Source: a virus
DNA length: 64,000 nt
Reading direction: 5' to 3' (one strand)
Virus record (IMG/VR): IMGVR_UViG_3300032242_000550
Location: 91,160 to 155,159 of that record
Under the pieces are notes generated by a model, which did not search any database, had not been told where the DNA came from, and saw nothing but the letters and a program-made list of their open reading frames with translations. A program made the position numbers and the translations under genes. Shown here piece by piece: positions 5,593 to 54,438 of this stretch. Numbering within the stretch: position 1 is the stretch's first letter; every line of letters starts with the position of its first letter.

Positions 5593-6510
5593 ATGGATTT
5601 TACTGGTGGTATAACAGTTAGTGGTGGATTGAGTGTAACTAGACAACCTCCTCCTACACAAAAAGCTATATTTGGATATGGCTTTGCCGGTGGTAATCAG
5701 TCATTGACCAATTTAGTAAGTGACACCGGTGTAGTTGCTACTGATACTGCAGGTGTGGGCACTGCTAGATACGATCTAGCAGCCACTGGTTATGGAACAG
5801 GTACTGCTATGTTTGGATACGGTCAAAATGTTAATGGTGGATCCAGTTATCTTTCACTGACCAATCTAGTATCAACTACAGGTGTTGTTGCTACTGATAC
5901 TACAGGTGTTGGTACTGCTAGATACTCATTAGCAGGTACAATGTATGGAACCGACAAAGGTATATTTGGATATGGGCGCAATTCAGGTAGTGTATCAATG
6001 ACCAACTTAGTAAGTAATACAGGTGTAGTAGCTACAGATACAACAGGTGTCGGTACTGCTAGAAATTACCTTGCGGCCGCAGGCTATGGTGTTGACAAAG
6101 CTATTTTTGGATATGGAAATGGCGGCAGCGGTGTGACTAATTTGGTATCAAACACCGGTGTAGTTGCTACTGATACAGCACCCGTTGGTACTAATAGATA
6201 TGCATTAGCAGCCGCTGGTTATGGCACTGATAAGGCTATATTTGGATATGGAAATAATTTTTCAAGCGATGTGTCAGTAACCAATAAAGTATCAAATACT
6301 GGTGTAGTTGCTAGTGATACCACAGGTGTAGGAACAGCAAGAAGTTATCTAGCGGCTGCAGGCTATGGATCCGATAAAGCGATTTTTAGCTATGGTAGTG
6401 GTGGAAATAAAACCAATCTAGTAAGTAATACCGGTGTAGTTGCTAGTGATACAACAGGTGTTGGTACTTTTAGGGCTCAGCTGGCAGCTGTAAGCTTTAC
6501 TGGACAATAA
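5593..6510 (+). CDS. Six-bladed Kelch-like beta-propeller protein, family A, copy 1
   Basis: Six ~47-aa repeats AIFGYG-x(n)-TNLVSNTGVVATDTTGVGTAR-xx-LAAAGYGTDK; GATAAATA at 5566-5573. The propeller fold is inferred from repeat length, number and motif spacing. Confidence 0.7.
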   Translation: MDFTGGITVSGGLSVTRQPPPTQKAIFGYGFAGGNQSLTNLVSDTGVVATDTAGVGTARYDLAATGYGTGTAMFGYGQNVNGGSSYLSLTNLVSTTGVVATDTTGVGTARYSLAGTMYGTDKGIFGYGRNSGSVSMTNLVSNTGVVATDTTGVGTARNYLAAAGYGVDKAIFGYGNGGSGVTNLVSNTGVVATDTAPVGTNRYALAAAGYGTDKAIFGYGNNFSSDVSVTNKVSNTGVVASDTTGVGTARSYLAAAGYGSDKAIFSYGSGGNKTNLVSNTGVVASDTTGVGTFRAQLAAVSFTGQ

Positions 6511-6523
6511 TTTCACTCAAAAC

Positions 6524-6547
6524 AAAAGGCTTTACTGAGCCTTTTTT
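6524..6547 (+). terminator. Terminator between propeller cassettes
   Basis: AAAAGGCT-TTACTG-AGCCTTTT-TT; near-identical hairpin at 9456-9479; GATAAATA follows at 6555-6562. Confidence 0.8.
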
Positions 6548-6582
6548 GTTATCTGATAAATATGTTATAGGAATAATATATT

Positions 6583-7521
6583 ATGGCAGACATGACATTT
6601 ACAGGTGGTATAACGTTTACTGGTGGGTTTAGTATAGTCAAACCTCCACCTTCGTATCTTGCATATGCTATTTTTGGATATGGAACCGGAGCATCTGACT
6701 ATTCAATAACCAACCTAGTAAGTAACACAGGTGTAGTTGCCGCAGATACTACAGGGGTTGGTACTGTTAGAAGTCAACTTGCAGCCGCAAATTACGGCAC
6801 AGATAAAGCTATATTTGGGTATGGATACACAACTACCTATGTATCAATGACCAACAAAGTATCAAATACAGGGGTTGTGTCTATAGATACTACAGGGGTA
6901 GGCACTGCTAGAGCAGTTTTAGCAGCCGCTGGGTATGGCACAGATAAAGGTATCTTTGGATATGGGTCCAATGGCGGAGGGCAAACAGCCGTAACCAATC
7001 TAGTATCTAACACAGGAGTAGTAGCCACCGATACTACAGGTGTTGGTACTGCCAGAGAACAACTAGCGGCATCAGGTTATGGAACTGATAAAGCTATTTT
7101 TGGATATGGATACAATGGATCCGCTGGAGTTTCAACGACCAACTTAGTATCAAACACGGGTGTAGTTGCAGCAGATACTACAGGTGTGGGTACTGCTAGA
7201 CTTGGTCTAGCAGCCGCCGGTTATGGTAATTCCGGTCAAGCTATTTTTGGATATGGAAATGGTAATAAATCAATGACCAATTTAGTAAGTAATACAGGAG
7301 TTGTTGCCACAGATACTACCGGAGTTGGTACCGGTAGAAATGGATTAGCAGCCGCAACTTATGGTACAAATAAAGCTATTTTTGGTTATGGATACAATAG
7401 TAGTCTAGGTGTAGTTTCAATAACTAATCTAGTAAGTAATACAGGTGTAGTAGCTACTGATACTACAGGTGTAGGTACTAGTAGATATCTTCTTGCAGCC
7501 GCAAGTTACGGATCCATATGA
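6583..7521 (+). CDS. Kelch-like propeller family A, copy 2
   Basis: Same six-repeat scaffold; N-terminus MADMTFTGGITFTGGFSIVKPPP. Confidence 0.7.
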   Translation: MADMTFTGGITFTGGFSIVKPPPSYLAYAIFGYGTGASDYSITNLVSNTGVVAADTTGVGTVRSQLAAANYGTDKAIFGYGYTTTYVSMTNKVSNTGVVSIDTTGVGTARAVLAAAGYGTDKGIFGYGSNGGGQTAVTNLVSNTGVVATDTTGVGTAREQLAASGYGTDKAIFGYGYNGSAGVSTTNLVSNTGVVAADTTGVGTARLGLAAAGYGNSGQAIFGYGNGNKSMTNLVSNTGVVATDTTGVGTGRNGLAAATYGTNKAIFGYGYNSSLGVVSITNLVSNTGVVATDTTGVGTSRYLLAAASYGSI

Positions 7522-7567
7522 TTTAAAAGATTTAGACATAAATACATTTACTATAAAGGAAAATATC

Positions 7568-7783
7568 ATGATAGATTTAGAGAACATGCCTGCTCCAACA
7601 GAAGAAGAAATTGCACAAGCAAGACTTAATGCATTGAATGCAGATCGTCCAGATTCATGGACATGGGATGAAGCATCAACCTCATATGTTGCGCCAGTAA
7701 GTGTACCAGATGATGGTTATCCATATTTATGGGATGAAGCATCAACTAGTTGGGTACCATTCCCAGATTTCCCTAGAGAATAA
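7568..7783 (+). CDS. Small WDE-motif protein (fibre-assembly-chaperone-like), 71 aa
   Basis: Start reassigned to ATG 7568 after AAGGA; two WDEASTS motifs (18-bp DNA repeat at 7663 and 7729); resembles the C-terminal half of the proteins at 12326 and 36182. Confidence 0.55.
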   Translation: MIDLENMPAPTEEEIAQARLNALNADRPDSWTWDEASTSYVAPVSVPDDGYPYLWDEASTSWVPFPDFPRE

Positions 7784-7788
7784 ATCTA

Positions 7789-8709
7789 ATGGATTTTATT
7801 GGTGGAATAACTGTTAGTGGTGGATTGAGTGTAACAGCGCAACCGCCACCCTCAAGCAAGGCTATATTTGGTTACGGAGGAGGTTATTTATCAATAACCA
7901 ATCTAGTAAGCACATCAGGTATAGTTGCTAATGATACCGCAGGTGTAGGTACTGCTAGAACTGAGTTAGCAGCTGCCGGATACGGTACAGATAAAGCTAT
8001 CTTTGGATATGGTGAAAATAACGGACCACAGTCAATGACAAATAAAGTATCAAATACTGGTGTTGTTGCCACTGATACAACAGGTGTTGGTACTGCTAGA
8101 TGGGCACTTGCAGCCGCAGGATACGGCACTGATAAGGCTATTTTTGGATATGGCTGGAACAATTATGCTACTCAGATGTATGCCTTAACCAACAAAGTAT
8201 CAAATACAGGTGTAGTTGCTACTGACACAGGTGGTGTAGGTACTATCAGAACTGCACTAGCAGCCGCAACTTATGGAACTGATAAAGCTATATTTGGATA
8301 TGGATACAATAACTATTCTTCTACTATATATTCTCTGACTAATTTAGTATCAAACACTGGTGTTGTTGCCACTGATACTAGTGGTGTCGGTACTGCTAGA
8401 TATCAAATTGCGGCGGCTGGTTACGGCAGTGATAAAGCTATATTTGGATATGGAACTACTGGCGCATCAACAGCAATAACCAACAAAGTATCAAATACAG
8501 GAGTTGTTGCGAGTGATACAACAGGTGTCGGTACTGCTAGGCCAGGACTAGCGGCTGCTGGCTATGGGGTTGATACTGCTATATTTGGATATGGTGGTAA
8601 TCCTGGTCCAACTAACTTAGTATCAAATACAGGTGTAGTTGCGACTGATACTACACGTGTTGGTACGTCAAGAACCGGTCTAGCAGCAGCAAGTTACGGG
8701 CTAGCATAA
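7789..8709 (+). CDS. Kelch-like propeller family A, copy 3
   Basis: Six repeats; N-terminus nearly identical to copy 1. Confidence 0.7.
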   Translation: MDFIGGITVSGGLSVTAQPPPSSKAIFGYGGGYLSITNLVSTSGIVANDTAGVGTARTELAAAGYGTDKAIFGYGENNGPQSMTNKVSNTGVVATDTTGVGTARWALAAAGYGTDKAIFGYGWNNYATQMYALTNKVSNTGVVATDTGGVGTIRTALAAATYGTDKAIFGYGYNNYSSTIYSLTNLVSNTGVVATDTSGVGTARYQIAAAGYGSDKAIFGYGTTGASTAITNKVSNTGVVASDTTGVGTARPGLAAAGYGVDTAIFGYGGNPGPTNLVSNTGVVATDTTRVGTSRTGLAAASYGLA

Positions 8710-8769
8710 ATTTTTACTAGTCCTATAAATCTATTAAATATCTCTATACACAACCTATAGAGAGATATT

Positions 8770-9435
8770 ATGGCATCAAATCTAAATTCAGAATTTAACT
8801 ATCGTTACCAAGTTATTGGTTCAACACCCTGGGAAAAAATCAAAACATTACAAGGCTTCTATGTCGGACGTAAACGTGCCGCTGTATTAGAAGAAGTAGC
8901 TGAACTAAAATATCAAGCTAAACTTGAAGAACTAAAACATTTAAAAACAGTTCCAGCATTACCACATATATTGCTTAATTTACAAGCAGAAATCATTGAG
9001 TTAGAATCACATTTAGATGACCAAAAACATGCATTTGAGCTTAATCGTAAAGAGATTAAGATATTAGAAAAACTTATGGCTGAACTATATGCTGAAGTTG
9101 AACCAACACGATTGAAACATCCAGATGGTACACCATATAGTGATGATGAGATGTTTGAAGCCAATGCTAATTATGAATTTACCGTAACAGTTGGTCGTGA
9201 GATACAATCTGAGATTATTGCTATGGGTAGACCTAGTCCAGCCAAGTTATTGAATGCTATGAGTAATCCAGAGACGTTACAATCATTAATGATGATTGGT
9301 CTTATACCACAAGGTACAGTGTTATTAGAGCAGAAAGACATTATGTTAGAGTTAACCAATCAGCAGCCTGTTGTTGAACCTGCAAAAGAGTTAGAAACTT
9401 CCACACCTAAGAAGAAGATAAAAAGAACAAAGTAA
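8770..9435 (+). CDS. Coiled-coil partner protein embedded in the propeller array, function unknown
   Basis: Heptad-rich E/K/L helices; ATTAAATA at 8733-8740; remote similarity to the C-terminal half of ORF 49550. Confidence 0.6.
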   Translation: MASNLNSEFNYRYQVIGSTPWEKIKTLQGFYVGRKRAAVLEEVAELKYQAKLEELKHLKTVPALPHILLNLQAEIIELESHLDDQKHAFELNRKEIKILEKLMAELYAEVEPTRLKHPDGTPYSDDEMFEANANYEFTVTVGREIQSEIIAMGRPSPAKLLNAMSNPETLQSLMMIGLIPQGTVLLEQKDIMLELTNQQPVVEPAKELETSTPKKKIKRTK

Positions 9436-9455
9436 TATCTATATACTTTACATAC

Positions 9456-9479
9456 AAAAGGCTCTACGGAGCCTTTTTT
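9456..9479 (+). terminator. Terminator with C(TACG)G tetraloop
   Basis: AAAAGGCTC-TACG-GAGCCTTTT-TT, immediately followed by CATAAATA at 9480-9487. Confidence 0.85.
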
Positions 9480-9506
9480 CATAAATAGATTAAAGGATAA
9501 CATATT

Positions 9507-10430
9507 ATGGATATTGGTGCAGGAATAACATTTGGTGCTGGGGTTAATATTGTTTATATACCTCCACCAACAAGTAAAGCTATCTTTGGATATGGTGTAA
9601 CTAGTGTTTATGTATCAATGACCAATCTTGTAAGTAACGCAGGTGTAGTTGCTACTGATACAACCGGTGTAGGTACAATAAGATCCACTCTTGCAGCCGC
9701 AACTTATGGTACGGATAAGGCTATATTTGGATATGGGGATGCCGGATCACCGGTATCTGTATCTAACAAGGTATCAAACACGGGTGTAGTTGCTACAGAT
9801 ACTACTGGTGTAGGTACTGCTAGACAATTATTAGCGGCAGCAGGATACGGATCAGATAAGGCTATATTTGGATATGGAGTATTCTACATCCCTTCAACAA
9901 CATATGTATCAATAACTAACCTAGTAAGTAATACAGGCGTAGTTGCATCTGACACTACTGGGGTAGGAACTGCTAGACAAAATCTTGCAGCAGCCGGTTA
10001 CGGAACTGATAAAGCTATATTTGGATATGGAAGTAATGGTTCGGGTTATGTATCAATGACCAATCTAGTATCAAATACAGGAGTAGTTGCTACTGATACA
10101 ACAGGTGTAGGTACTGCTAGGAGCGCACTTGCAGCCGCAACTTATGGTATTGATAAAGCTATATTTGGATACGGAACTACAAAAGTTACTAATTTAGTAA
10201 GTAACACAGGCGTAGTTGCAACTGATACTATCGGTGTAGGTACTACTAGAAATTATATTGCAGCCGCAGGTTATGGAGTTGATACTGCTATATTTGGATA
10301 TGGAACATCTAGTGGAACGGATGTATCAATAACTAATAAAGTATCAAACACCGGTGTAGTTGCAAACGATACTACAGGTGTAGGTACTGCTAGAAATGGT
10401 TTATCAGCGGCAAGTTACGGACTAGCATAA
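9507..10430 (+). CDS. Kelch-like propeller family A, copy 4
   Basis: Six repeats; N-terminus MDIGAGITFGAGVNIVYIPPP. Confidence 0.7.
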   Translation: MDIGAGITFGAGVNIVYIPPPTSKAIFGYGVTSVYVSMTNLVSNAGVVATDTTGVGTIRSTLAAATYGTDKAIFGYGDAGSPVSVSNKVSNTGVVATDTTGVGTARQLLAAAGYGSDKAIFGYGVFYIPSTTYVSITNLVSNTGVVASDTTGVGTARQNLAAAGYGTDKAIFGYGSNGSGYVSMTNLVSNTGVVATDTTGVGTARSALAAATYGIDKAIFGYGTTKVTNLVSNTGVVATDTIGVGTTRNYIAAAGYGVDTAIFGYGTSSGTDVSITNKVSNTGVVANDTTGVGTARNGLSAASYGLA

Positions 10431-11453
10431 AAATAAAAGGATAACATATTATGGATATTGGTGCAGGAATAACATTTGGTCAGGGTGTGAATATTGTTTA
10501 TATACCTCCACCAACAAGTAAAGCTATATTTGGATTTGGATATAGTACTACTTTTACAAATATAACTAATTTAGTCTCAACCACAGGTGTAGTAGCTACT
10601 GATACCACAGGGGTAGGTACTGTTAGACAAGGACTTGCAGCGGCAGGTTACGGAACAGATAAAGCTATTTTTGGATTTGGTGACTACTACTCCTTTGGCA
10701 ACGATTATTTCTCAATAACCAATCTAGTATCAAATACCGGTGTAGTAGCCGCAGACAACGGAACGGTTGGTCTTGCAAGAGGCTGGCTCGCCGCTACAGG
10801 TTACGGTACTGATAAAGCTATTTTTGGATTTGGAGTTAATTACGGCGGTGGGCGTAGTGAAACTAATCTAGTATCAAACACCGGTGTAGTTGCAACTGAT
10901 ACCGCTGGTGTAGGGTTTGCTAGACGATATCTAGCAGCCGCAAGATATGGAACTGATAAAGCTATATTTGGATATGGCGGCGGTGCCTCTTGGTATTCAA
11001 TGACCAATTTAGTATCAAATACTGGTGTAGTTGCTAGTGATACCACTGGTGTAGGTACTGCTAGGATGTACTTAGCAGCCGCAGGGTATGGCAATGATAA
11101 AGCTATATTTGGTTATGGCTCATCTATATCCGGAGTACAATCATTAACAAATTTAGTAAGTAACACCGGTGTTGTTTCTACCGATACAACCGGAGTCGGT
11201 ACTGCTAGAAATGCATTAGCAGCCGCAAGTTATGGTGTTGATACTGCTATTTTTGGTTATGGATCCGGACCAACTGCAATAACCAATTTAGTTTCAAACA
11301 CCGGTGTTGTTTCTACCGATACAACCGGGGTTGGTACTGCTAGAACCGGATTAGCAGCCTCAAATTATTCAACATAAAATCGCAACACAAAATAAAAGGA
11401 TAACATATTATGGATATTGGTGCAGGAATAACATTTGGTCAGGGTGTGAATAT
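10430..11453 (+). repeat. 65-bp exact direct repeat covering the RBS and first 14 codons of two different genes
   Basis: AAAATAAAAGGATAACATATTATGGATATTGGTGCAGGAATAACATTTGGTCAGGGTGTGAATAT at 10430-10494 and 11389-11453; 45 bp of it also at 9492-9536. Confidence 0.95.
10451..11377 (+). CDS. Kelch-like propeller family A, copy 5 (aromatic-rich loops)
   Basis: Six repeats, three of them with FGFG; loops such as DYYSFGNDYF. Confidence 0.7.
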   Translation: MDIGAGITFGQGVNIVYIPPPTSKAIFGFGYSTTFTNITNLVSTTGVVATDTTGVGTVRQGLAAAGYGTDKAIFGFGDYYSFGNDYFSITNLVSNTGVVAADNGTVGLARGWLAATGYGTDKAIFGFGVNYGGGRSETNLVSNTGVVATDTAGVGFARRYLAAARYGTDKAIFGYGGGASWYSMTNLVSNTGVVASDTTGVGTARMYLAAAGYGNDKAIFGYGSSISGVQSLTNLVSNTGVVSTDTTGVGTARNALAAASYGVDTAIFGYGSGPTAITNLVSNTGVVSTDTTGVGTARTGLAASNYST

Positions 11454-12258
11454 AACACCGCAACCACCTTCAATTACATTTCTTATAATAGCAGGTGGAG
11501 GAGGCGGTGGTAGTTACGGCGGTAGCGGTGGCGGCGCAGGTGGTTATATCACTACCACTGCAGCCTATGCGCCAGGGACGGTTTATACGGTTACTGTTGG
11601 CGCAGGTGGGACAGGTGGTACAGCATTTGATAAAGGTACTAGCGGGGCAAATAGTTCCGTTACAGGCTTTACTACTGCAGTGGGAGGTGGTGCTGGATCT
11701 GGCGCATTTAGTGCTGCTTTAAGTGGTGGTTCAGGAGGCGGTGCCGGTTACCCATCAAGTCCAACTGGAGGTTCAGGCATAATAGGACAAGGATTTGCTG
11801 GTGGTTCAAGTGGAGGTCAACTTTACATTGGCTCTGGTGGCGGCGGCTCTAGTGGTGTTGGTATTGACAGTGGTACTTCACCAACATATATTGCAGGAAA
11901 TGGTGGGCCTGCTACTGCATCAATAATTACGGGTGCTTCCGTATATCGAGCCGGTGGCGGTGGCGGTGGCGTTGGCATCACAGCAGGCGGCACCGCCGGT
12001 AGTGGCGGTGGCGGTGGGGCAGGAAACGGTGGCAATCAAAGCGCCGCTCCTACTGCTGGAGCAGTAAACACCGGTAGTGGTGGAGGTGGCTCGGGTAGTG
12101 GTGCCGGTTATACTGGCGCTGCGGGTGGATCAGGTGTGGTTATAATATCAGTACCAAGTACTTCCTACAGCGGTACAACCACCGGTTCACCTACAGTAAT
12201 AACTTCTGGCAGTAATACTATTATGCAATTTAATTCATCGGGAAGTTATACATCGTGA
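11410..12258 (+). CDS. Glycine-rich virion/adhesin protein with the shared N-terminal tag
   Basis: FLIIAGGGGGG..GGGGAGG, YTVTVGAGG and GGSGVVII motifs of phage glycine-rich domains. Confidence 0.7.
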   Translation: MDIGAGITFGQGVNITPQPPSITFLIIAGGGGGGSYGGSGGGAGGYITTTAAYAPGTVYTVTVGAGGTGGTAFDKGTSGANSSVTGFTTAVGGGAGSGAFSAALSGGSGGGAGYPSSPTGGSGIIGQGFAGGSSGGQLYIGSGGGGSSGVGIDSGTSPTYIAGNGGPATASIITGASVYRAGGGGGGVGITAGGTAGSGGGGGAGNGGNQSAAPTAGAVNTGSGGGGSGSGAGYTGAAGGSGVVIISVPSTSYSGTTTGSPTVITSGSNTIMQFNSSGSYTS

Positions 12259-12325
12259 GCTACTTTTTAAAAGATTAAAAGTCATTAGATAAACCAATAA
12301 ATAAATTAATATCAAGGATAAAGAA

Positions 12326-12688
12326 ATGGCACATTTTGCACAAATAGATGAAAACAACATCGTTACCCAAGTTATTGTAATAGAGCAATATGTATTGGAT
12401 ACCGGTCTATTTGGTGATCCAATTAATTGGATTCAAACAAGCTATAACACAATAGGTGGTGTACACAAATTAGGTGGTACACCATTACGTAAAAATTATG
12501 CTGGTATAGGTTATACTTATGATAGTACAAGAGATGCATTTATACCACCTAAACCTTTTAACAGTTGGGTATTAAATGAAACTAGTTGCATATATGAAGC
12601 TCCTACACCTAAACCAGCTGACTACCCGAATATACAGTATGTTTGGGATGAACCAACACTAAGTTGGATAGAATTCACTGATGTGTAA
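12326..12688 (+). CDS. MAHFA-type small protein (putative fibre/adhesin assembly chaperone)
   Basis: MAHFAQIDENNIVTQVIV...WIQTSYN...RKNYAGIGYTYD..DAFIPP; close paralog at 36182. Confidence 0.6.
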   Translation: MAHFAQIDENNIVTQVIVIEQYVLDTGLFGDPINWIQTSYNTIGGVHKLGGTPLRKNYAGIGYTYDSTRDAFIPPKPFNSWVLNETSCIYEAPTPKPADYPNIQYVWDEPTLSWIEFTDV

Positions 12689-12703
12689 TAAAGGTGTTTT
12701 TGC

Positions 12704-13069
12704 CTATAATGTATAATCTGTATCAACTGTAATATCTAAAATACTTTTACTTTTTTCTTTTAACTTCTTTTTATACAATCTACTACAGTTTGCACATAAC
12801 GTTTTTAAATTACTTTTTTCTTTGTTTTTTCTATTACTATCTTTGTAAATAACATCTAGTTGGCATTTATCTTCCGGAATAAATCCACACTTCTCACATC
12901 TGTTCTTTTTATGTAATAGATAGCCGTGTTTTGGATTATATGCGGCTTTACTACACTCAACACAATACTTGTGCCATTTTGTAAACCCATGCTTACTAAT
13001 ACCGTTCGGCTTTGATAACGATATATTACAGTTTTCACATAAAGGTCTTGGCGGTTGTCTGGTTAACAT
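12704..13069 (-). CDS. Zn-binding, degenerate HNH-fold protein
   Basis: Four CxxC pairs; CEKCGF...QLDVIYKDSN...NLKTLCANCS follows HNH spacing but lacks the His residues; TAAATA on the minus strand at 13074-13079. Confidence 0.6.
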   Translation of the reverse strand: MLTRQPPRPLCENCNISLSKPNGISKHGFTKWHKYCVECSKAAYNPKHGYLLHKKNRCEKCGFIPEDKCQLDVIYKDSNRKNKEKSNLKTLCANCSRLYKKKLKEKSKSILDITVDTDYTL

Positions 13070-13170
13070 AACTTATTTAGAAAAAAGATTTATTGGATGC
13101 TTTTTTCCACGGGGCAAATTATATATATCTGATAAATATATAATTAATATAATAATTTTCGGGACACAAT

Positions 13171-17892: not shown

Positions 17893-17945
17893 TTACCGGT
17901 ACATAATTAAGAAAAAGATAAATACAAGCATAAGGACACAATAAA

Positions 17946-35221: not shown

Positions 35222-36163
35222 ATGGCAATATTAAGTGGATTAACAATATCAGGCGGTGGGATAACTATTCAAGGCGCCAGTGGCGGTGGAGGAGGTGGTA
35301 CACAAAAAGCTATCTTTGGATATGGATCTACTGCTGGAGGATATCAATCCATAACCAATCTAGTGAGCAACACTGGTGTTGTTGCCGCAGATACCACAGG
35401 TGTTGGCACTATCAGATCCTCTTTGGCAGCCGCCGGCTATGGCGGTGACAAAGCTATATTTGGTTATGGCACCGGTGCCGGAGGTTCAAAATCAGTGACC
35501 AATTTGGTATCAAACACTGGTGTAGTGGCCACAGATACCGCCGGTGTTGGCACGGCTAGACCTTATCTAGCAGCCGCCGGATACGGCACTGATAAAGCCA
35601 TATTTGGTTATGGATTGGCAGCAGGCGCGTCAGCATTAACCAACTTAGCATCAAATACAGGTGTAGTTGCCACAGATACAGCAGGTGTGGGTACTGCGAG
35701 ATATGGATTAGCAGCCGCTGGTTATGGCACAGACAAAGCCATATTTGGATATGGAACTAGTAGTAGTGATACATCAATAACCAATCTAGTAAGTAACACA
35801 GGGGTCGTAGCCACAGATACAACTGGTGTTGGCACCGCTAGGTCCTTTCTAGCAGCCACAGGCTATGGAGGTGACAAAGCCATATTTGGTTATGGAGTTA
35901 CTACTCCGATACTTTCAATGACCAATCTAGTATCAAACACAGGTGTAGTAGCCACAAATACCACCGGTGTAGGAACTGCTAGATATAATCTTGCAGCCGC
36001 TGTTTATGGAGGTGATAAAGCCATATTTGGATATGGAAATGATGGTTCACCGTATTCAGCAGTAACTAACTTAGTGAGTAATACAGGTGTTGTAGCCACA
36101 GATACCGCCGGTGTTGGCACTGCTAGACAGGCAGTAGCAGCCGCAGGGTATTCACTAAATTAA
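35222..36163 (+). CDS. Kelch-like propeller family A, copy 6 (orphan, outside the array)
   Basis: Six identical-scaffold repeats; Gly linker instead of PPP; visibly more GGC/GCC codons than copies 1-5. Confidence 0.7.
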   Translation: MAILSGLTISGGGITIQGASGGGGGGTQKAIFGYGSTAGGYQSITNLVSNTGVVAADTTGVGTIRSSLAAAGYGGDKAIFGYGTGAGGSKSVTNLVSNTGVVATDTAGVGTARPYLAAAGYGTDKAIFGYGLAAGASALTNLASNTGVVATDTAGVGTARYGLAAAGYGTDKAIFGYGTSSSDTSITNLVSNTGVVATDTTGVGTARSFLAATGYGGDKAIFGYGVTTPILSMTNLVSNTGVVATNTTGVGTARYNLAAAVYGGDKAIFGYGNDGSPYSAVTNLVSNTGVVATDTAGVGTARQAVAAAGYSLN

Positions 36164-36181: not shown

Positions 36182-36538
36182 ATGAGTCATTTTGCACAAA
36201 TAGATGAAAATAACATAGTAACACAAGTTATTGTGGTAGAACAAGATGTATTAGATACAGGATTGTTTGGTGATCCAAATTCATGGATTCAAACTAGCTA
36301 TAATACAAGCGGAGGTGTACATCGCTTAGGTGGCACACCATTACGTAAAAACTATGCTGGTATTGGCTATACTTATGATAGTACTAAAGATGCATTTATA
36401 CCACCAAAACCATATAATTCATGGATATTAAATGAAGATACTTGCTTGTATGAAGCACCTACAGTAATGCCAGATGATGGTAAACAATATACATGGGATG
36501 AAGATACAACATCTTGGGTAGAAATAGTATTACCATAG
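36182..36538 (+). CDS. MSHFA-type putative assembly chaperone, paralog of ORF 12326
   Basis: Near-identical over most of its length to ORF 12326. Confidence 0.6.
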   Translation: MSHFAQIDENNIVTQVIVVEQDVLDTGLFGDPNSWIQTSYNTSGGVHRLGGTPLRKNYAGIGYTYDSTKDAFIPPKPYNSWILNEDTCLYEAPTVMPDDGKQYTWDEDTTSWVEIVLP

Positions 36539-45642: not shown

Positions 45643-45705
45643 AATAACATTTTTTTGAACAATACTATTGTACAATAAATATTGACTATATAAAGGAAAA
45701 ATCTT

Positions 45706-45873
45706 ATGGAAATTACATTAAAACTATCTATTGATGAAGTTAACTTCATTACTGGTGTATTGGGCGATCTGCCTTCTAAAAGTGGTTCTTGGCCTTTAAT
45801 CGTTAAGATTAAAGAACAAGGCGATCCACAATTTTTAGCAAATCAACAATCAAATCAACCACCAGCAAATTAA
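45706..45873 (+). CDS. Small hypothetical protein, 55 aa (not in ORF track)
   Basis: AATAAATA at 45674-45681, AAAGGA RBS; reads MEITLKLSIDEVNFITGVLGDLPSKSGSWPLIVKIKEQ... Confidence 0.6.
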   Translation: MEITLKLSIDEVNFITGVLGDLPSKSGSWPLIVKIKEQGDPQFLANQQSNQPPAN

Positions 45874-45911
45874 TATTTTTGACATAGAGGTATCTATCAC
45901 TAAATATCTCT

Positions 45912-47182: not shown

Positions 47183-47673
47183 AACAGGCTTATTTTGTAC
47201 CAAACTTCCCTATAAATCGTATCACACAACCAGGTGAAGATGGTTGGTGTCATATGCCAAATCACCCAAGAATGCGTTATGATTATTTGGGCGCAATACT
47301 GGAACATATGGATAATAGTAAACGCATTGATCCAATACAAATCACCATACATGATGAAAATCAAATACATGCAGGACCAAGTGGTGTATCCAGATTGTTT
47401 GCATTAACATACAAAAGGAACTATACTCATATACCATGTATTGTTAATAGTAATATACAATATGAATGGTTTGGTGAAGATGTAGTTAGTATTGTATCAA
47501 TACCACAACTATTAAGTTATTTTGATCCTAATTATCTACCTAAAACTTATAGTTTAGATAACGGTGCATACTGGCATAATGGTACTTGGAGCTATGAAGA
47601 ATTAGAACGTACTATGAATGTATCAATGGAAACAAAACTACGCATGAAACAAATGATGACAGAAACAAACTAA
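47179..47673 (+). CDS. Hypothetical protein, possible ParB/sulfiredoxin-like N-terminal domain
   Basis: RIDPIQI...SGVSRLFAL...HIPCIV resembles the ParB/Srx G-x-x-R motif spacing. Confidence 0.4.
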   Translation: MKQAYFVPNFPINRITQPGEDGWCHMPNHPRMRYDYLGAILEHMDNSKRIDPIQITIHDENQIHAGPSGVSRLFALTYKRNYTHIPCIVNSNIQYEWFGEDVVSIVSIPQLLSYFDPNYLPKTYSLDNGAYWHNGTWSYEELERTMNVSMETKLRMKQMMTETN

Positions 47674-47674
47674 A

Positions 47675-48520
47675 ATGAAACAAGAATTCTTTTTTTATAG
47701 TGGATTACCAAGAGCTGGCGGAACAATGTTAGCTTCAGTAATGAACCAACATACAGATTTATATGTTAGTCCATTAAGCCCTACAGTAGAATTATTATAT
47801 TATACAGAAAGATATTTTGATGAAAGTAGTGAGGCATATAGTGCAAATCCACAACCAGTGGCTAAACAAAGTGTACTAGAATCATTACCAAGAGAATATT
47901 ATAAAAATATACCTAAAAAGTATATTATGGATAACAATCGTGCATGGCCTAATAATACTGATAGAATTATTAAATTTATCACTAACAAACCAAAGATTGT
48001 ATGTATAGTTAGAGATGTACCATCTATATTAGCTAGTTTTATTGATTTAGTGAATCGTAGTAATAATCCAGGAAATAACTTTATTGACCGTTGGTTATTA
48101 GATAATCGTATGGAATTGAATACTAGAAATAGATGTTATTATTTGATGCAGCCAATTGGTATTGTAAATCAAAGTTTATGGAGTATGTATCAGGGTTACA
48201 GTAATCCAAGTGTAAAAGCTTGTATGCATATGGTAGAGTATGATGATTTGATTAGTAATCCTGAAGAAACAATGAGTGATATTGTTGATTTCTTAGATAT
48301 ACCAAAATATAAGTTTATGTTTAACGATATTAAGAATGTAACACCCGTAGATGATGTAACATATAATTTAGAAGGTATGCATAGTGTAAGACCTAAGTTA
48401 GCCAGTAGAAATTTAGATCCAGTAGAAATATTAGGATCTGATTTAGTTAGTCAGTATTCTGGTTTAGAGTACTGGAGAGAAGTTAGTAAACCAAGTAAAA
48501 TCAAGTTGTTTAGTATATAA
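47675..48520 (+). CDS. PAPS-dependent sulfotransferase
   Basis: SGLPRAGGTML (5'-PSB loop), IVRD..SILAS (3'-PB), VEYDDLISNPEETM. Confidence 0.85.
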   Translation: MKQEFFFYSGLPRAGGTMLASVMNQHTDLYVSPLSPTVELLYYTERYFDESSEAYSANPQPVAKQSVLESLPREYYKNIPKKYIMDNNRAWPNNTDRIIKFITNKPKIVCIVRDVPSILASFIDLVNRSNNPGNNFIDRWLLDNRMELNTRNRCYYLMQPIGIVNQSLWSMYQGYSNPSVKACMHMVEYDDLISNPEETMSDIVDFLDIPKYKFMFNDIKNVTPVDDVTYNLEGMHSVRPKLASRNLDPVEILGSDLVSQYSGLEYWREVSKPSKIKLFSI

Positions 48521-48552
48521 TATTTGATAAATATACTAAAGAGAGAGATTTT

Positions 48553-49542
48553 ATGCCAGTAACAATAACAGGTGGAGTATCATTTTCAGGGGGAGGTGTC
48601 TCAATGGTAGGGGCTCCTCCTACAGTAGCCACAGCAGGATGGTATGGTGGTGGTAACGGACCAGTATCTACTATAGATCGCATAACATTTGCTACAGATA
48701 CTGCAACTGCGACTGCACGTGGACCATTAAGTTCTGCAACTTATAATTTAGGAGCAAGTGGTAATCTTACATACGGATGGTGGGCAGGTGGTGTCAATCC
48801 CGGTGTTGCTCCATTTTATTCACTTTCCACTGTACAACGAATCACATATGCTACAGATACTGCTACTGCTTCAGTAAGAGGCTCTTTAGCTGCCACTAAT
48901 AGGACTGGTGCAGGTTCCGGTAATACATCAGATGGGTGGTTCGGTGGGGGGTATAATGGACCGGGCGCCGCTGTTAATATATTATCACTTGTTAGTAGAA
49001 TAACATATGCCACAGACACTAATACTGCATCACAACGAGGTCCGTTAAGTTTAGCAAGAACAAAAATTGCTTCAGCTTCAGATAATAGTGCTTATAGCTG
49101 GTTTGCAGGTGGTAATTTACTTCCTGGTCCCCTTTCTACCGTAGATCGCATAACATATGCAACCGATACAGCAACAGCAAGTGTACGCGGTCCATTAACT
49201 GCTGCAAAATATAATTTATCTGCAATGGGTAATTCAGCATATGGTTGGTTTTGTAGTGGGTATGTATTTGGAGTGTCGGCATACAGTTCGTCTGTAATCA
49301 GAATAGATTATGCAAATGATACAACAACTCCGAGTATACGCGGTCCATTAAGTTCAGCAAGACGTTTAGTAGGCGCAGCCGGTAATGACACTGATGGTTG
49401 GGTAAGCGCCGGCGGAAGCTCACCTGGTCCCCTCTCTACCGTAGATCGCATAACATATGCAACCGATACTAATACTGCAAGTGTACGCGGACCGTTGACT
49501 TCTGCTAGATATGGATTAGCTGGCGCAGCCGGACTACAATAA
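48553..49542 (+). CDS. Six-bladed Kelch-like propeller family B, copy 1
   Basis: Six repeats GWFGGG-x(n)-STVDRITYATDTATASVRGPL; Kelch-type GG; GATAAATA at 48526-48533. Confidence 0.7.
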   Translation: MPVTITGGVSFSGGGVSMVGAPPTVATAGWYGGGNGPVSTIDRITFATDTATATARGPLSSATYNLGASGNLTYGWWAGGVNPGVAPFYSLSTVQRITYATDTATASVRGSLAATNRTGAGSGNTSDGWFGGGYNGPGAAVNILSLVSRITYATDTNTASQRGPLSLARTKIASASDNSAYSWFAGGNLLPGPLSTVDRITYATDTATASVRGPLTAAKYNLSAMGNSAYGWFCSGYVFGVSAYSSSVIRIDYANDTTTPSIRGPLSSARRLVGAAGNDTDGWVSAGGSSPGPLSTVDRITYATDTNTASVRGPLTSARYGLAGAAGLQ

Positions 49543-49549
49543 ACAACAA

Positions 49550-51370
49550 ATGATCTCCGGCGCTACCCAATCTGGGTTTCACTTTCTACAAGAACATATC
49601 AACTTCCCAAGTGATACCTCAGTAGATTATGACCCACATAAACTAATCAATAGCAATAAACAAATAAAGATACTGTGGGCACACTATGCACATGATCAAC
49701 CAATCTTCTTAAACGTAGATTGGACTAAAATAACACATATTGTATGTGTAAGCAATTGGCAAAAATCTCAGTTTATCAAATATCTCAACATACCAAAAGA
49801 TAAAATAAGTGTAATACGTAATGGTGGTGCAGACTATTTTACATATAAACAAAAAACAAACAAAACTCTTATATACGCTAGTACACCATTTCGTGGATTA
49901 AAATATCTACCCTATATCTTTAAACAGGTACTAAAACGTCATCCTGACGCTATATTAAAAGTATTCTCTGGTATGAAGTTATATGGTGCTAGTGATACAC
50001 AAGAGTTCAAAAAAATATACGAAGAATTAAAAAACACACCAAACACAATTTATAGTGAACCAATCAATCATCAAGAACTTGCAGTAGAGTTTAGCAATGC
50101 GTCATTATTGGTTTATCCAAATATCTGGGAAGAAACAAGTTGTGTTACATTGATTGAAGCGATGCGTTCAGGTTGTTATCCAATATGTAGTGATATAGGT
50201 GCATTGCCCGAAACAAGCAATGGATATGGAACTATTGTACCATTAGAAGCGAAATATCATGCAAGTGGTTGGATACCAAGTAAAAGGTTTTTAGATGATT
50301 TTGCTGATAATATTTGCCAAGCATTATCACTTACTAAATATACTCATACTAAAGAGCAGGCTGATTGGGCTTGTGAATACTATAGCTGGAACACTATTGC
50401 TAGTGAATGGCAAACCTTACTAAACAAACTATCAACAAAAGGATCACAAATGAAAAAGAAAATGGAAATATCTAATCTTGCCGCACATACAGGTGATAAG
50501 ATTGTACATGATGAAAAAGTACTATCACAAGTATTTGATGAAATATTCCGTTGGGAAGAAGCAGATAAAGAACATGCTCAAGGGCGTAGTAATTTTCAAA
50601 TTGAAAAGTTTATTGCATTAGATAACTATACAATTCCAAGTGCTTTTAATGCCATGTTAAAGAATCGTAGAATTATGGCAGAAGGTTTATTTAGTAAGAT
50701 TACCGAGATGAAAGAACATCAACGTGAGTTTGATTACAAATGGAATAAGAAAGATAAAGAACAACCAATTCAATGGCCAACTAAAGATGGTGGCACTAAG
50801 TTATGTTGGTATGATTTGGATTATTTAAATCTACAGAATTTCTTAAAAAGTAGTGAGTTAGAGATACGTGATCGTGTACAGCAGATTGCTACGTTTGATA
50901 AGATTTTAGATAGATTAGTTGAACAGAATGGTGGTCCAATCACACGTGAACAGTTTGAAAATGAGGATCATGTATATTGGGAACGTCGCCTAGCTAACCA
51001 AGCTATGGATGAAATGATTAGTCGTAATACTGGTATTGGTGTTGGTAACATTCACAGTATGCGTAGAGCCAGTGCACCTACATTGATTTCTGATGATGTA
51101 AATCGTGTTAAGAATGATTTCCCTGATTTAGGTAAAGCATTAAGCGGTGGAGAAAATAGTATAGAATTTTTATTAGAATTACAGAAAAAAGTTGTTGCTG
51201 GTATTGAAGAAGTTACCAGTAGTGATATCTTAGAATTAGCTAACGAAAAGGTTACTGAACGTATTGGTATTACCGAGCGTTTAGATAGGATGCATGAAAA
51301 ACCACGTACACAAGCTAGACCAGAAGTATCACCAAAGAGTTTATTTAATGACAAATGGAACACTAAATGA
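49550..51370 (+). CDS. GT-B (GT4-like) glycosyltransferase fused to a coiled-coil partner domain
   Basis: LIYASTPFRGL and YPNIWEETSCVTLIEAM..G...SDIGALPE (EX7E motif); residues 301-606 form a separate helical domain. Confidence 0.8.
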   Translation: MISGATQSGFHFLQEHINFPSDTSVDYDPHKLINSNKQIKILWAHYAHDQPIFLNVDWTKITHIVCVSNWQKSQFIKYLNIPKDKISVIRNGGADYFTYKQKTNKTLIYASTPFRGLKYLPYIFKQVLKRHPDAILKVFSGMKLYGASDTQEFKKIYEELKNTPNTIYSEPINHQELAVEFSNASLLVYPNIWEETSCVTLIEAMRSGCYPICSDIGALPETSNGYGTIVPLEAKYHASGWIPSKRFLDDFADNICQALSLTKYTHTKEQADWACEYYSWNTIASEWQTLLNKLSTKGSQMKKKMEISNLAAHTGDKIVHDEKVLSQVFDEIFRWEEADKEHAQGRSNFQIEKFIALDNYTIPSAFNAMLKNRRIMAEGLFSKITEMKEHQREFDYKWNKKDKEQPIQWPTKDGGTKLCWYDLDYLNLQNFLKSSELEIRDRVQQIATFDKILDRLVEQNGGPITREQFENEDHVYWERRLANQAMDEMISRNTGIGVGNIHSMRRASAPTLISDDVNRVKNDFPDLGKALSGGENSIEFLLELQKKVVAGIEEVTSSDILELANEKVTERIGITERLDRMHEKPRTQARPEVSPKSLFNDKWNTK

Positions 51371-52071
51371 AAAACAATCTATTAACTAACATATTGATTG
51401 TTCCTAATGTAATTTCTAAAGAGGGAATAGCTTTCATTATGGATCATGCTAAAAAACAGAAACATGAAGATTTATCTGTGTTTGATCCAGAACAAAGTAA
51501 TAAGACTAGTAGTACTAAGTTTAGTGTAGACAAAAGTGTTAGAGATACACAGATGCTTGATTTAGAAGGTATTGCTAATGAGATAATTATGTTATATAAA
51601 AATACTGTAACTAATGTTATCAATCCATTTTATGAGTTTGAGATTAAAGATTCTGAGTTACCACAATTGTTACATTATGGCATTGATGGGCATTATATGC
51701 CACATTGTGATGGAGAATCGTTATGGAAACCACCAGGAAATGAGCCATTGATTTGGCGTAAAAGTACTGATAGAGATTTAAGTACGGTATTTTTTTTGAA
51801 TGATGATTTTGAAGGTGGTGATTTTGTATTCCCTGAATTAAAAATTAGAGTTCGTCCAGAGCCAGGCATGTTAGTTTGTTTCCCTTCCACACATGAATAT
51901 TTACATGGTGTTGAACCAGTAACTAGTGGTACTAGATACAGTATGGTTAATTGGATGACAGTTAAAGGATTTCCTAGTATGGAAGAAGAAACTGCTATGA
52001 TTAATCATAAATACAATATAGGTAACAAGAATGTTGCTGATAAAAAGGAAAAAACATGGCTAAGTACATAA
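51367..52071 (+). CDS. 2OG-Fe(II) oxygenase, prolyl-4-hydroxylase-like
   Basis: QLLHY..GHYMPHCD (HxD), FLNDDFEGG, FPS..YLHGVEPVTSGTRYS. Confidence 0.85.
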   Translation: MKNNLLTNILIVPNVISKEGIAFIMDHAKKQKHEDLSVFDPEQSNKTSSTKFSVDKSVRDTQMLDLEGIANEIIMLYKNTVTNVINPFYEFEIKDSELPQLLHYGIDGHYMPHCDGESLWKPPGNEPLIWRKSTDRDLSTVFFLNDDFEGGDFVFPELKIRVRPEPGMLVCFPSTHEYLHGVEPVTSGTRYSMVNWMTVKGFPSMEEETAMINHKYNIGNKNVADKKEKTWLST

Positions 52072-52469
52072 AGCATTATTACGTAGATGGTGAGAATTTA
52101 GTAGAGTTCTTTACAGATAAGAACATGGGACCTAACGGTAAGACACATCCAAGAATTGACGGTTTAGATGTTAAGTTTTGGTTTGTAGACGATAATGGTA
52201 TTGATTATTGTATGAGTGTAGTTCCAGATGAGACAGAGATTGTTCCAGTAAATGGCATGGGTGAAGGCACATATGAACAGTGGTCCAATGAAATATCTGG
52301 TCAATTTGATATACAGAAAGCAAGTGTAGCTAATAATAGTGATTTATTGACTAGATTGGGTAAAACTGAAGCTGAAGTATTAGCTATGAGTTTTGACAAT
52401 ACCAGTGTTGAGTCAATGTTAGCTAGTTTTGCTCAATTTGCACCTATTCCGGAAGTTTTAGGTAGTTAA
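52056..52469 (+). CDS. Hypothetical protein, 137 aa
   Basis: AAGGA RBS; lies between the oxygenase and family B propellers. Confidence 0.6.
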   Translation: MAKYIKHYYVDGENLVEFFTDKNMGPNGKTHPRIDGLDVKFWFVDDNGIDYCMSVVPDETEIVPVNGMGEGTYEQWSNEISGQFDIQKASVANNSDLLTRLGKTEAEVLAMSFDNTSVESMLASFAQFAPIPEVLGS

Positions 52470-52534
52470 TATATAGTAAGCCATAACAGTAGATGTAAAT
52501 AGTGTGATAAATACACTATATTAAAGGGAAATAT

Positions 52535-53509
52535 ATGGCACTAGTAATAGAAGGTGGTTGGACATTTGGTGGTGGAATATCAATAACTCCACCGCCGCCG
52601 TCTACTGCAACAGCAGGATGGGTTAGCGGAGGACAAACAACTCCTAGTCCGGCAGTATCTGTTGTAGATCGTATAACATTTGCAACAGATACTGCCACAG
52701 CAAGCGTTCGCGGTCCACTAAGTTTAGTAAGGCATTCTGGGTCAGCAGCCGGCACACTCAATTACGGATGGGTAATTGCTGGTTATTCACCTAACTCAGC
52801 ACAATCATTAGTAGATAGAATAACATATGTTACGGATACTGCTACTGCAAGTGTACGTGGCCCAACAAGTATTGCTGCATATTCTATTAGTGCAACAAGC
52901 GACAGTACTACTTATGGTTGGTTTGGCGGAGGAATCTCAGCCAGTGTTCTAAGTACAATTCAACGTATTACATTTGCAACCGATACTGACACAGCAAGTA
53001 TACGTGGCCCGTTAAGTTTAGCACGATCTCAAATGGCTGCTACTGGGTCTAGTAGTTATGGTTGGTATATGGGCGGACTGGGCCCGGGATCAACCGTAGA
53101 TCGTATCACTTATGCTTCAGATACTGCTACTGCAACTGCTAGAGGTCCCCTAGCTTTAATAGTTTATGCTTCAGCGGGAGCAGTAACTGATAATACAACA
53201 TACGGATGGTATGCCGGCGGTAATGTACCTGCTCCTGATTATACCACATCTACTGTGCAACGTATTACATATGCAACAGATACTGCAACAGCTGGTGTTC
53301 GCGGACCATTAGTAGCTAACAGAGTTTCAAGTACGGCAGCTGTTAGTGATACTACATACGGTTGGTTTGGTGGAGGATATGTTAGCGGTGTACCTACTTC
53401 ATTAATTACTCGCATTACATTTGCAACAGATACAGCAACGTCAGTTAATCGTGGACTTTTGAGTGTAGGACGAATAAATTTACTCGGCGGATCATCCGGA
53501 CTACAATAA
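52535..53509 (+). CDS. Kelch-like propeller family B, copy 2
   Basis: Six repeats; N-terminus MALVIEGGWTFGGGISITPPPP; GATAAATA at 52506-52513. Confidence 0.7.
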   Translation: MALVIEGGWTFGGGISITPPPPSTATAGWVSGGQTTPSPAVSVVDRITFATDTATASVRGPLSLVRHSGSAAGTLNYGWVIAGYSPNSAQSLVDRITYVTDTATASVRGPTSIAAYSISATSDSTTYGWFGGGISASVLSTIQRITFATDTDTASIRGPLSLARSQMAATGSSSYGWYMGGLGPGSTVDRITYASDTATATARGPLALIVYASAGAVTDNTTYGWYAGGNVPAPDYTTSTVQRITYATDTATAGVRGPLVANRVSSTAAVSDTTYGWFGGGYVSGVPTSLITRITFATDTATSVNRGLLSVGRINLLGGSSGLQ

Positions 53510-53520
53510 AAGGATAAGTA

Positions 53521-54438
53521 ATGTCAATAACAATAACTGGTGGATTTTCAATGGCAGGCGGCGGCTTCACTGTTATACCTCCACCACCAGCAACACAAAC
53601 TGCGGGTTGGTGGGCAGGTGGACGAGCAAATGCAAGCGTAGTGTCTATTGTTGATCGCCTTACATATGCAACAGATACTGCAACTACAAGTGTTCGTGGT
53701 CCACTAAGTGGAAGCTACTATTATATTGCGTCAGCAGGAACGTTCACTGCTGGTTGGTTTACAACTGGTGAGGGTAGCCGTACTATAACTCGTATTACAT
53801 ATGCAACAGATACTGATATTTCAAGCAATCGTGGGTTGTTTTTTGCGGCAACAGCACGAGGGGTGTCTGCGTCATCAAATGGTACTACGTATGGATGGTT
53901 CACTCCAATTGGTAACTATTTTAACCGTCTTTCATATGCAAGCGATACTACAGAGCCAGTACTACGTGCAACTCCAGCTAGTACTTTCTTTATGGCTGCA
54001 ACAGGAACCAGTAGTTATGGTTGGTTTGGTGGAGGTTATGTATCATCAACAATCGTATCTACTGTACAACGTCTTGATTATAGCAATGATGGTTCTACCC
54101 CTACTATACGAGGACCATTAAGTGCAGCCGTAAGATATCACGCAGGAACCGGGGATGGCACTACTTACGGATATTATGTTGCTGGTAACTCAAGTTCAAC
54201 GGTACAACGTATCACCTATGCAACAGATACTAATACTGCAAGTATACGTGGTCCGTTTACTTTGTCAATTAATAAATTAGCGGGGGCCGGAAACGATACA
54301 TATAGCTGGCTTAGTGGGGCATATAATAATACTAGTATAGGACGTATAACCTATTCAACAGATACTAATACTGCAAGCACTAGAGGATCATTAAGTGCTG
54401 GTAGATATGCATTGGGAGCTACTTCAGGCATACAATAA
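53521..54438 (+). CDS. Kelch-like propeller family B, copy 3
   Basis: Six more divergent repeats; N-terminus MSITITGGFSMAGGGFTVIPPPP. Confidence 0.7.
   Translation: MSITITGGFSMAGGGFTVIPPPPATQTAGWWAGGRANASVVSIVDRLTYATDTATTSVRGPLSGSYYYIASAGTFTAGWFTTGEGSRTITRITYATDTDISSNRGLFFAATARGVSASSNGTTYGWFTPIGNYFNRLSYASDTTEPVLRATPASTFFMAATGTSSYGWFGGGYVSSTIVSTVQRLDYSNDGSTPTIRGPLSAAVRYHAGTGDGTTYGYYVAGNSSSTVQRITYATDTNTASIRGPFTLSINKLAGAGNDTYSWLSGAYNNTSIGRITYSTDTNTASTRGSLSAGRYALGATSGIQ

Follow-up and report, generated by a model that had tools for sequence, protein, structure and literature searches.

The last 64 kb of a 155-kb viral contig from IMG/VR (record IMGVR_UViG_3300032242_000550; this stretch of 64,000 nucleotides will be referred to as the window) encode ten proteins that begin with the same short peptide (the tag), followed by a hinge and by one of several head domains. 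Tag, hinge and head are separable modules, and as judged from sequence searches the tag is confined to one phage clade, whereas the heads are widespread. The reading favored here, with a probability of about 0.5, is that the tag, a peptide specific to this clade, docks accessory receptor-binding heads and that the heads are turned over by recombination.

The source is an uncultured giant T4-like lake phage. The contig has a CheckV completeness of 45%, and its gene order is T4-like, with portal, prohead protease, scaffold and gp23 before the array of tagged genes and giant fibre genes after it. The nearest gp23 proteins from cultured phages are only 66% identical, and their owners are jumbo myophages (285–470 kb). 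In a complete relative (IMGVR_UViG_3300023174_000038, referred to as G001; 348,701 bp, CheckV 100%), gp23 is 97% identical to that of the window phage. The samples that bear these sequences are metagenomes, one of them with a freshwater label. Among cultured phages, no match was found with the array (megablast) or with the family A proteins described below (tblastn), and family B has matches only in cyanophage S-SKS1 and in one single-cell virus.

The N-terminal tag and its heads

The tag is about 16–20 residues long. Its pattern is M, 0–3 residues, h-T-h-x-G-G-h-T-h-x-(G)-G-G-h-x-h, and another 2–3 residues before the hinge, and it reads as three β-strand-like h-p-h-p-G-G units (hexads). The ten open reading frames (ORFs) listed by an earlier, sequence-only reading of this DNA are all present, and all ten have the tag and a hinge, which consists of two to four prolines in nine of them and of GGGGGG in gene 35222 (genes are named by their first position in the window, Table 1). 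Hidden Markov models (HMMs) place the tag beyond chance. The model of the family A tags alone, run against the six-frame translation of the contig (133,064 aa), recovers the Gly-rich gene (E 4e-9) and two of the three family B genes (E ~1e-3), and its best remaining match is noise (E 0.4). The reciprocal model of the family B tags finds 6583 (E 2.5e-4). An eleventh tagged gene, of family A and 75% identical to 6583, lies outside the window on the minus strand (G000:C1:24726-25667, G000 being the contig of the window). It stands alone, far from the arrays, and a neighboring gene has a signal-peptide-like N-terminus. The tag HMM finds the tag in no further ORF of the six-frame 155-kb contig.

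The tag starts at the extreme N-terminus in 111 of 112 database proteins and in 176 of 180 matches in viral loci. It is conserved as protein across divergent DNA, with the subtypes MSITITGG, MDIGAGITFG and MAIEIGPGW.

The family A head, found in six of the ten proteins, is formed by six tandem repeats of about 48 aa each; every A and B gene has six repeats. The AlphaFold2 (AF2) model of the 6583 protein, from an alignment of 38 sequences, is an all-β structure with six blades and about four strands per repeat (predicted local distance difference test score, pLDDT, 65; predicted template modelling score, pTM, 0.61). Foldseek matches this model to the Kelch domains of KLHL12, KLHL17 and Keap1, with template modelling (TM) scores of 0.73–0.77. 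By its predicted fold, family A is a six-bladed Kelch-like propeller. A Pfam scan of the A and B proteins with E values up to 0.1 gives no family, Kelch repeat models included, and one family A homologue has a sub-threshold match to Kelch_KLHDC2 (E 0.02). The A and B proteins are Kelch-like in fold and lie outside the Pfam Kelch sequence families.

Family B (phrog_19111) is homologous to family A over the tag and five blades (hhalign probability 94.9%, E 4.5e-8). This alignment and the presence of an S-SKS1 homologue among the BFVD structural neighbors suggest a propeller fold for family B as well. As the homology includes the tag, the tag is common to A and B by descent. The head of 11410 matches Pfam Gly_rich_2 with 70.3 bits (cut-off 24.3), over model positions 15–224 of 226. 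Three head types had been proposed by the sequence-only reading. The A propeller and the Gly-rich head are borne out, and A and B are related to each other rather than independent.

More than 2400 homologues of the A head and more than 900 of the B head are found in databases, many of them started by the tag. The remaining A and B homologues have Mtd_N, Laminin_G_3, fn3 or long fibre-like N-terminal domains, and the A head is found after all four. Two other short N-termini, of the MFSAAxGGFIYGVP and WPTSFYV types, are located on A and B heads alike. Homologues of Gly_rich_2 are nearly all attached to long fibre-type N-termini. A BFVD entry from an uncultured Caudovirales phage (A0A6J5PIS4, 853 aa) shows that both of these head types can occur in one chain: it is annotated as glycine-rich-domain-containing and also includes a propeller of family A (48% identity, TM 0.80).

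The tag is not restricted to these heads. In 75 viral loci fetched through the B head, the tag HMM finds 108 B, 63 A and 9 other heads. Tagged heads in related viral contigs include an RCC1 propeller (E 1e-65), fn3 together with Gly_rich_2, a Gly-rich variant (phrog_4474) and a set of four LamG domains, in agreement with the earlier proposal of a common tag on diverse heads. A search of IMG/VR with the DNA pattern of MSITITGG, which is blind to the head, gives 34 unique complete proteins, with A heads in 20, B heads in 10 and Gly-rich heads in 4. Of 70 loci with the tag pattern, 69 also carry genes homologous to those of the window phage or G001, with a mean amino acid identity of 82%. With its clade-bound tag and widespread heads, the family behaves as phage receptor-binding proteins (RBPs) do with their N-terminal anchors and C-terminal specificity domains. 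Moreover, a short N-terminal peptide is common to proteins that are otherwise unrelated, as in the docking systems known by their 'conserved peptide'.

Two other roles for the tag were considered and rejected. The tag is not the closing "Velcro" strand of the propeller, as the ring in the AF2 model is shut by the C-terminal strand together with the first three strands, and heads other than propellers are also tagged. A capsid-targeting or protease-processed leader was rejected by eye, since the tags have no Glu and the gp21-type cleavage motif of T4 needs one.

A second shared N-terminal motif, (F/L)-N-S-h-x-G-(Y/F)-S-(I/V)-G, is present in three fibre genes of the window (13171-13260, 17946-18035 and 23630-23720) and also in the fibres of G001. 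From its sequence, it looks like a second N-terminal plug family, on giant fibres.

Turnover and promoters of the tagged genes

Genes 10451 and 11410 are identical over 65 nt (21 upstream and 44 coding), across the ribosome-binding site (RBS) and the tag, and they diverge from just before the proline hinge. The 5′ end of 9507 has 45 nt identical to both. An exchange of heads is observed in the slot of 35222, where the 48-nt tag (46 of 48 identical) and 14 nt upstream are common to the window and G001. After the tag, the window has an A propeller and G001 has a 926-aa protein with four LamG domains, and homology restarts at the RBS of the next gene.

The slot after gp23 holds five A genes, 8770, a small ORF and the Gly-rich gene in the window, four A genes in the related locus L001, and a single tag-Gly_rich_2 gene in G001. 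The island of family B genes has 1+2 B genes in the window and 2+4 in G001. The tagged genes of G001 number about 15 (10 B, 1 A, two Gly_rich_2, one fn3 and one LamG). Gene count and head mix both differ among the relatives, and the array is therefore not invariant; invariance would have counted against the sequence-only reading. Between the window and G001, the B genes are about 50% identical at the amino acid level and the enzymes interleaved with them 82–92% identical; the median is 51% for tagged genes and 89% for all shared non-tagged genes.

A search for RVT_1 gives no match in the contig of the window or in the complete G001, whereas the control genomes did match. The shared tag DNA before unrelated heads and the lack of RVT_1 in both genomes support renewal of the repertoire by recombination rather than by a diversity-generating retroelement, as the sequence-only reading had held.

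Logan contigs from four metagenome runs were compared over positions 3300-13300. The array is covered exactly by contigs of the source run. For the other runs, the summed contig depth is 80–700 over gp23 and about 0.4–20 over the array, and many joints connect paralogues (for example, 5515 to 9457). As these are contigs, matched at 85% likeness and over repeats, they neither rank genes nor prove variants, and the picture is only compatible with a variable island.

The borders of the array have features of their own. An endonuclease-like gene (HNH-type by eye) is located between gp23 and the array (4689-5489), and an unlike gene of 325 aa occupies this position in L001 and G001, which makes the left border itself a mobile-element slot. 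At the right border, a Cys-rich gene of 121 aa on the minus strand (12704-13069), with weak matches to HNH-endonuclease PHROGs, is kept (83%) in the window, L001 and G001, as the fixed edge of the variable slot.

Of the 49 ATAAATA motifs on the contig, 25 fall in the last 60 nt ahead of a gene start, most of them at −25 to −34 and in front of structural genes. The exact motif is found 26–28 nt before the ATG in five of the ten tagged genes, and the looser TAAATA in six. An own promoter of this type had been claimed for most of the units. This holds for those six, while the tagged genes that have no box of their own are packed tightly behind a gene that bears one. The canonical T4 late box TATAAATA is not enriched on the contig, with 6 matches compared to 14 expected. 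Some tagged genes follow gp23 and precede the fibres, others are placed between giant fibre genes, and still others come after the fibres. Both the positions of the tagged genes and their ATAAATA boxes fit those of structural genes.

Companion genes and neighboring enzymes

Small accessory genes accompany the tagged genes, as had been proposed, and three of them (7568, 12326 and 36182) are true paralogues, with the C-terminal motif of phrog_7759 in common. Another companion, 8770, belongs to a family of 111 representative clusters. A Foldseek search of the PDB with its model gives only generic coiled coils (E >0.5). A likeness to the peptide-binding domain of collagen prolyl hydroxylase was considered, and the fold search of the PDB gave it no support. 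The 8770 family matches no family in Pfam or PHROG, and the chaperones Tfa, gp38 and gp57A are unmatched in sequence or fold.

Table 1. Tagged genes, companion genes, enzymes and promoter-like boxes in the window, with the basis for each assignment
Position	Strand	Feature	Basis
5593..6510	+	Tagged family A, 305 aa; tag MDFTGGITVSGGLSV, PPP hinge, six Kelch-like blades (predicted)	ATAAATA 26 nt upstream
6583..7521	+	Tagged family A, 312 aa; PPP hinge; modelled protein	AF2 propeller; Foldseek Kelch; >2400 metagenomic homologues
7568..7783	+	Small accessory ORF, 71 aa; W-D-E-x-T-S-W motif	phrog_7759 C-terminal motif, E 3e-4; 51% identical to small ORF of locus L170
7789..8709	+	Tagged family A, 306 aa	Tag, PPP hinge
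8770..9435	+	Accessory protein, 221 aa; predicted long antiparallel helical hairpin and small helical domain	AF2, pLDDT 92
9507..10430	+	Tagged family A, 307 aa; tag MDIGAGITFG, PPP hinge	45 nt of 5′ end in common with 10451 and 11410
10451..11377	+	Tagged family A, 308 aa; PPP hinge	65 nt identical to 11410
11410..12258	+	Tagged Gly_rich_2 head, 282 aa; PP hinge	PF21722, phrog_2295
12326..12688	+	phrog_7759 small protein, 120 aa; directly 3′ of tagged gene	PHROG
35222..36163	+	Tagged family A, 313 aa; poly-Gly hinge; between two giant fibre genes	LamG in orthologous slot of G001
36182..36538	+	phrog_7759 paralogue, 118 aa; 3′ homology boundary of swapped cassette	Comparison of window and G001
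47675..48520	+	Sulfotransferase, first in family B island	PF13469 and PF00685; homologue beside B genes in S-SKS1
48553..49542	+	Tagged family B, 329 aa; PP hinge	phrog_19111
49550..51370	+	Glycosyltransferase (GT1/GT4) fused to C-terminal module of ~300 aa	Pfam, PHROG
51367..52071	+	2-Oxoglutarate (2OG)-Fe(II) oxygenase, prolyl-hydroxylase-like	PF13640; best PDB sequence matches are prolyl 3-/4-hydroxylases
52056..52469	+	Conserved B-island protein, 137 aa, without family match	88% identical in G001; with glycosyltransferase and oxygenase in 16 loci
52535..53509	+	Tagged family B, 324 aa; PPPP hinge	Tag alignment
53521..54438	+	Tagged family B, 305 aa; PPPP hinge	Tag alignment
5567..5573; 6556-6562; 9481-9487; 48527-48533; 52507-52513	+	ATAAATA late-promoter-like boxes	Motif search

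The two propeller clusters had been thought to have homologous coiled-coil genes, 8770 and the C-terminal half of 49550. This homology was not detected. BLASTP gives an E value of 0.4, jackhmmer no cross-matches, and hhalign a probability of 0.7% between a profile of 45 sequences for 8770 and one of 14 sequences for the C-half of 49550, and the two have no PHROG in common. The proposal was rejected, with ESM Atlas look-ups and the searches above all negative or uninformative.

Where the neighbors are known, the genes of the 8770 family are located 16–69 nt from a tagged or propeller gene, except for the copy in locus L170, which is two genes away. Such a placement is as expected of a tail-fibre assembly chaperone, whose gene directly follows that of its fibre or adhesin. 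The G001 homologue (90.6% identical) occupies another genomic position, with an A gene on one side and a B gene on the other, and in locus L068 the homologue comes after a tag-fn3-Gly_rich gene. Loci fetched through 8770 homologues alone keep this arrangement. One of them (L172) has a propeller and then the homologue. Another (L170:2660-4872), on a podovirus-like contig with SU10_adaptor and Peptidase_S74 fibre genes, has a propeller, a W-D-E-x-T-S-W protein (51% identical to that of ORF 7568) and an 8770 homologue (45% identity). The N-terminus of this propeller is of the MALNPSGPISLGG type and not the tag. In a further locus (L171:71-2354), an 8770-family gene adjoins an IS605 OrfB/TnpB-like (Cas12f1-like_TNB) gene.

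In S-SKS1, the C-module of 49550 is free-standing between B-family genes, with a homologous sulfotransferase adjoining and a 2OG oxygenase near. The propellers of S-SKS1 and L170 do not have the tag or the PPP hinge, and they keep their companions. The linkage of enzymes and companions is therefore to the propeller head and not to the tag. The dedicated partners of the sequence-only reading stand insofar as accessory genes travel with the heads, with the 8770 family beside propeller or tagged genes; it is the propeller that they follow. The 8770 hairpin and the small W-D-E-x-T-S-W proteins, encoded downstream of the propeller heads with which they travel, are probably helpers in folding, assembly or modification.

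In two members of the 8770 family (P0365 and P0379), the protein is fused to 2OG-FeII_Oxy_5, and the next gene encodes a 2OG-FeII_Oxy_3 protein. In locus L168, the fusion is located at 193-1491 and the adjoining gene at 1502-2059. The gene directly after the B island of the window (54492-55283) opens with the P-loop motif GLPGSGKT.

A proposed docking role and its alternatives

In the favored reading, the tagged proteins would be late-expressed accessory adhesins, each made of an N-terminal peptide, a proline (once glycine) hinge and a ligand-binding head. The tag would plug any head into a common socket of the virion, more likely in the fibre or baseplate network, and possibly on the capsid. 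The repertoire changes by tandem duplication and homologous recombination, with junctions at the tag and RBS and at the start of the next gene. Besides the tag on unrelated heads, its confinement to one clade, the positions and promoter boxes like those of structural genes and the precedents given below, two lines of evidence argue for this reading. The same heads form fibre tips elsewhere, after Mtd_N, Laminin_G_3, fn3 or long N-termini and next to the fibre genes of L170. Moreover, the tagged genes evolve fast and in the manner of cassettes, as seen in their lower identity, the head swap and the shared 5′ ends. Virion display, a shared socket, ligand binding and the 'antibody-like library' of the sequence-only reading are what we infer from this arrangement.

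Several points weigh against a docking role. The phage is uncultured, and its tagged proteins are putative virion components. A Pfam scan of eight proteins from the fibre region of the window, a candidate site of the socket, gives no gp10-like branching domain. As the tag of A and B goes back to a common ancestor, the case for modularity rests on the other heads. The tag has a moderate pLDDT of 71–76 in the AF2 monomer and no assigned secondary structure. In addition, the B genes are embedded among sulfotransferase, glycosyltransferase and prolyl-hydroxylase-like oxygenase genes, here and in S-SKS1. This setting suggests that such enzymes may act on the hinge or on the heads, which would give the N-terminal region an additional or different role.

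As one alternative, the tagged proteins could be soluble late lectins or decoys outside the virion, which bind the host envelope or extracellular polymeric substances, block superinfection or mask receptors on debris, with the tag as an inherited stabilizing or expression element. Placement in the virion is putative, and some of the tagged genes of G001 are scattered beyond the structural modules, for example near DNA polymerase. In addition, the tag DNA is inherited together with the RBS, so that its conservation could partly reflect constraints on translation initiation or recombination. However, the peptide is conserved at the protein level over many divergent DNA sequences and subtypes, the same heads tip true fibre proteins elsewhere, and promoters and positions match those of structural genes. 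Soluble proteins are considered unlikely.

The three hexads of the tag could instead indicate an oligomerization element, a β-helix turn or short β-meander, with three tags, alike or different, forming the docking stub of trimeric and possibly mixed mini-fibres. The fibre shafts that carry the same heads elsewhere are of a kind that is usually trimeric. On the other hand, Kelch-like propellers and RCC1 domains are usually monomeric, and sixteen residues are very short for trimerization plus docking, which leaves this arrangement rather improbable.

A primary role of the tag and the PP to PPPP hinge as a modification site, where the oxygenase would hydroxylate, the glycosyltransferase and sulfotransferase would extend, and the 8770 family and the 49550 C-module would recruit the substrate, would suit the prolyl 3- and 4-hydroxylase matches of 51367, the company of oxygenase, glycosyltransferase fusion and sulfotransferase among B genes in the window, G001 and 16 loci, the repetition of this linkage in the unrelated S-SKS1, the 2OG oxygenase fusion in L168 and the fused glycosyltransferase and C-module of 49550 itself, but it is very unlikely given that most tagged genes (among them those of the A array, of L001 and at scattered sites in G001) lie away from such enzymes, that the S-SKS1 and L170 propellers keep the companions without tag or PPP hinge, and that one paralogue (35222) has a glycine hinge.

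The favored docking peptide can also be extended to a universal plug that would place 11–15 reshuffled lectin-like heads at many equivalent fibre or capsid sites, with the hinge hydroxylated and glycosylated by the prolyl-hydroxylase-like, glycosyltransferase and sulfotransferase enzymes of the phage, recruited via 8770 and the 49550 C-module. This full scheme is regarded as quite doubtful.

By analogy, the closest precedent for the proposed docking peptide is the 'conserved peptide' of Klebsiella podophage KP32, where docking of foreign heads on the virion requires the N-terminal 29 aa of RBP2 and needs no more than these (PMC13352976). In KP32, K11 and KP34 (PMC13352976, PMC6872550), as in the window, a short N-terminal peptide is found on otherwise unrelated, horizontally exchanged heads; the docking role is proven for KP32 and proposed here. 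In KP32, each phage has a single secondary RBP; its head is a trimeric depolymerase, and its socket is a known gp10-like branching domain. In comparison, the clade of the window consists of T4-like jumbo myophages in which a genome encodes 11–15 tagged proteins, and the heads are small (propeller, Gly-rich or LamG). The two systems are likened by architecture, not by peptide sequence.

The multi-tailspike and multi-fibre adsorption complexes of Ackermannviridae and RaK2-like jumbo phages (PMC11414711, PMC10253068) also have many RBP genes per genome, with conserved N-terminal attachment modules, variable C-termini and recombinational turnover. However, their N-terminal modules are folded domains of at least 100 residues (XD, gp10-like) and their heads are β-helical enzymes, whereas the window proteins have an adaptor peptide of about 20 residues and heads that look lectin-type or protein-binding.

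Six-bladed Kelch-like propellers of about 300 aa are known from other giant phages, in CBB_550, 552 and 554 of jumbo phage CBB and in BcepSaruman, RP12, S-TIM5 and Noxifer. CBB_552 was detected in virions by mass spectrometry (PMC5259590). The relation to the window proteins is by fold only (TM 0.56–0.77), and no shared N-terminal tag is described for these proteins. The BFVD structural neighbors in S-TIM5 and Noxifer are phage Kelch-like proteins annotated as virion structural proteins.

T4 Hoc is a non-essential display protein with an attachment part and outward binding domains, and its gene comes directly after the region of the major capsid gene. It is the product of a single gene, with Ig-like domains and a C-terminal capsid-binding domain. 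The tagged proteins have no Pfam or PHROG match to Hoc, no relation to it in fold was found, and the likeness is only in the gene position downstream of gp23.

The sequence-only reading had called the array a candidate new system. This overstates the case, as the combination of an anchor and exchangeable heads is already established for phage RBPs. The array is most likely an enlarged version of a known plug-in system for host-binding proteins and not categorically new, and its interest lies in the scale, in the smallness of the plug and in the linkage to companions and enzymes. Should docking prove to be the role of the tag, each genome in this clade of abundant lake jumbo phages would use a plug of about 20 residues for 11–15 heads, with six or more fold types among them, which is an unusual scale for an anchor with exchangeable heads. 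Such a tag would also provide a simple annotation rule for thousands of unannotated metagenomic proteins, and a very small natural connector for the engineering of phage host range. Moreover, the link of the propellers to the helical-hairpin family and to the prolyl-hydroxylase-like, glycosyltransferase and sulfotransferase genes of the B island points to an unstudied pathway of adhesin maturation or modification.

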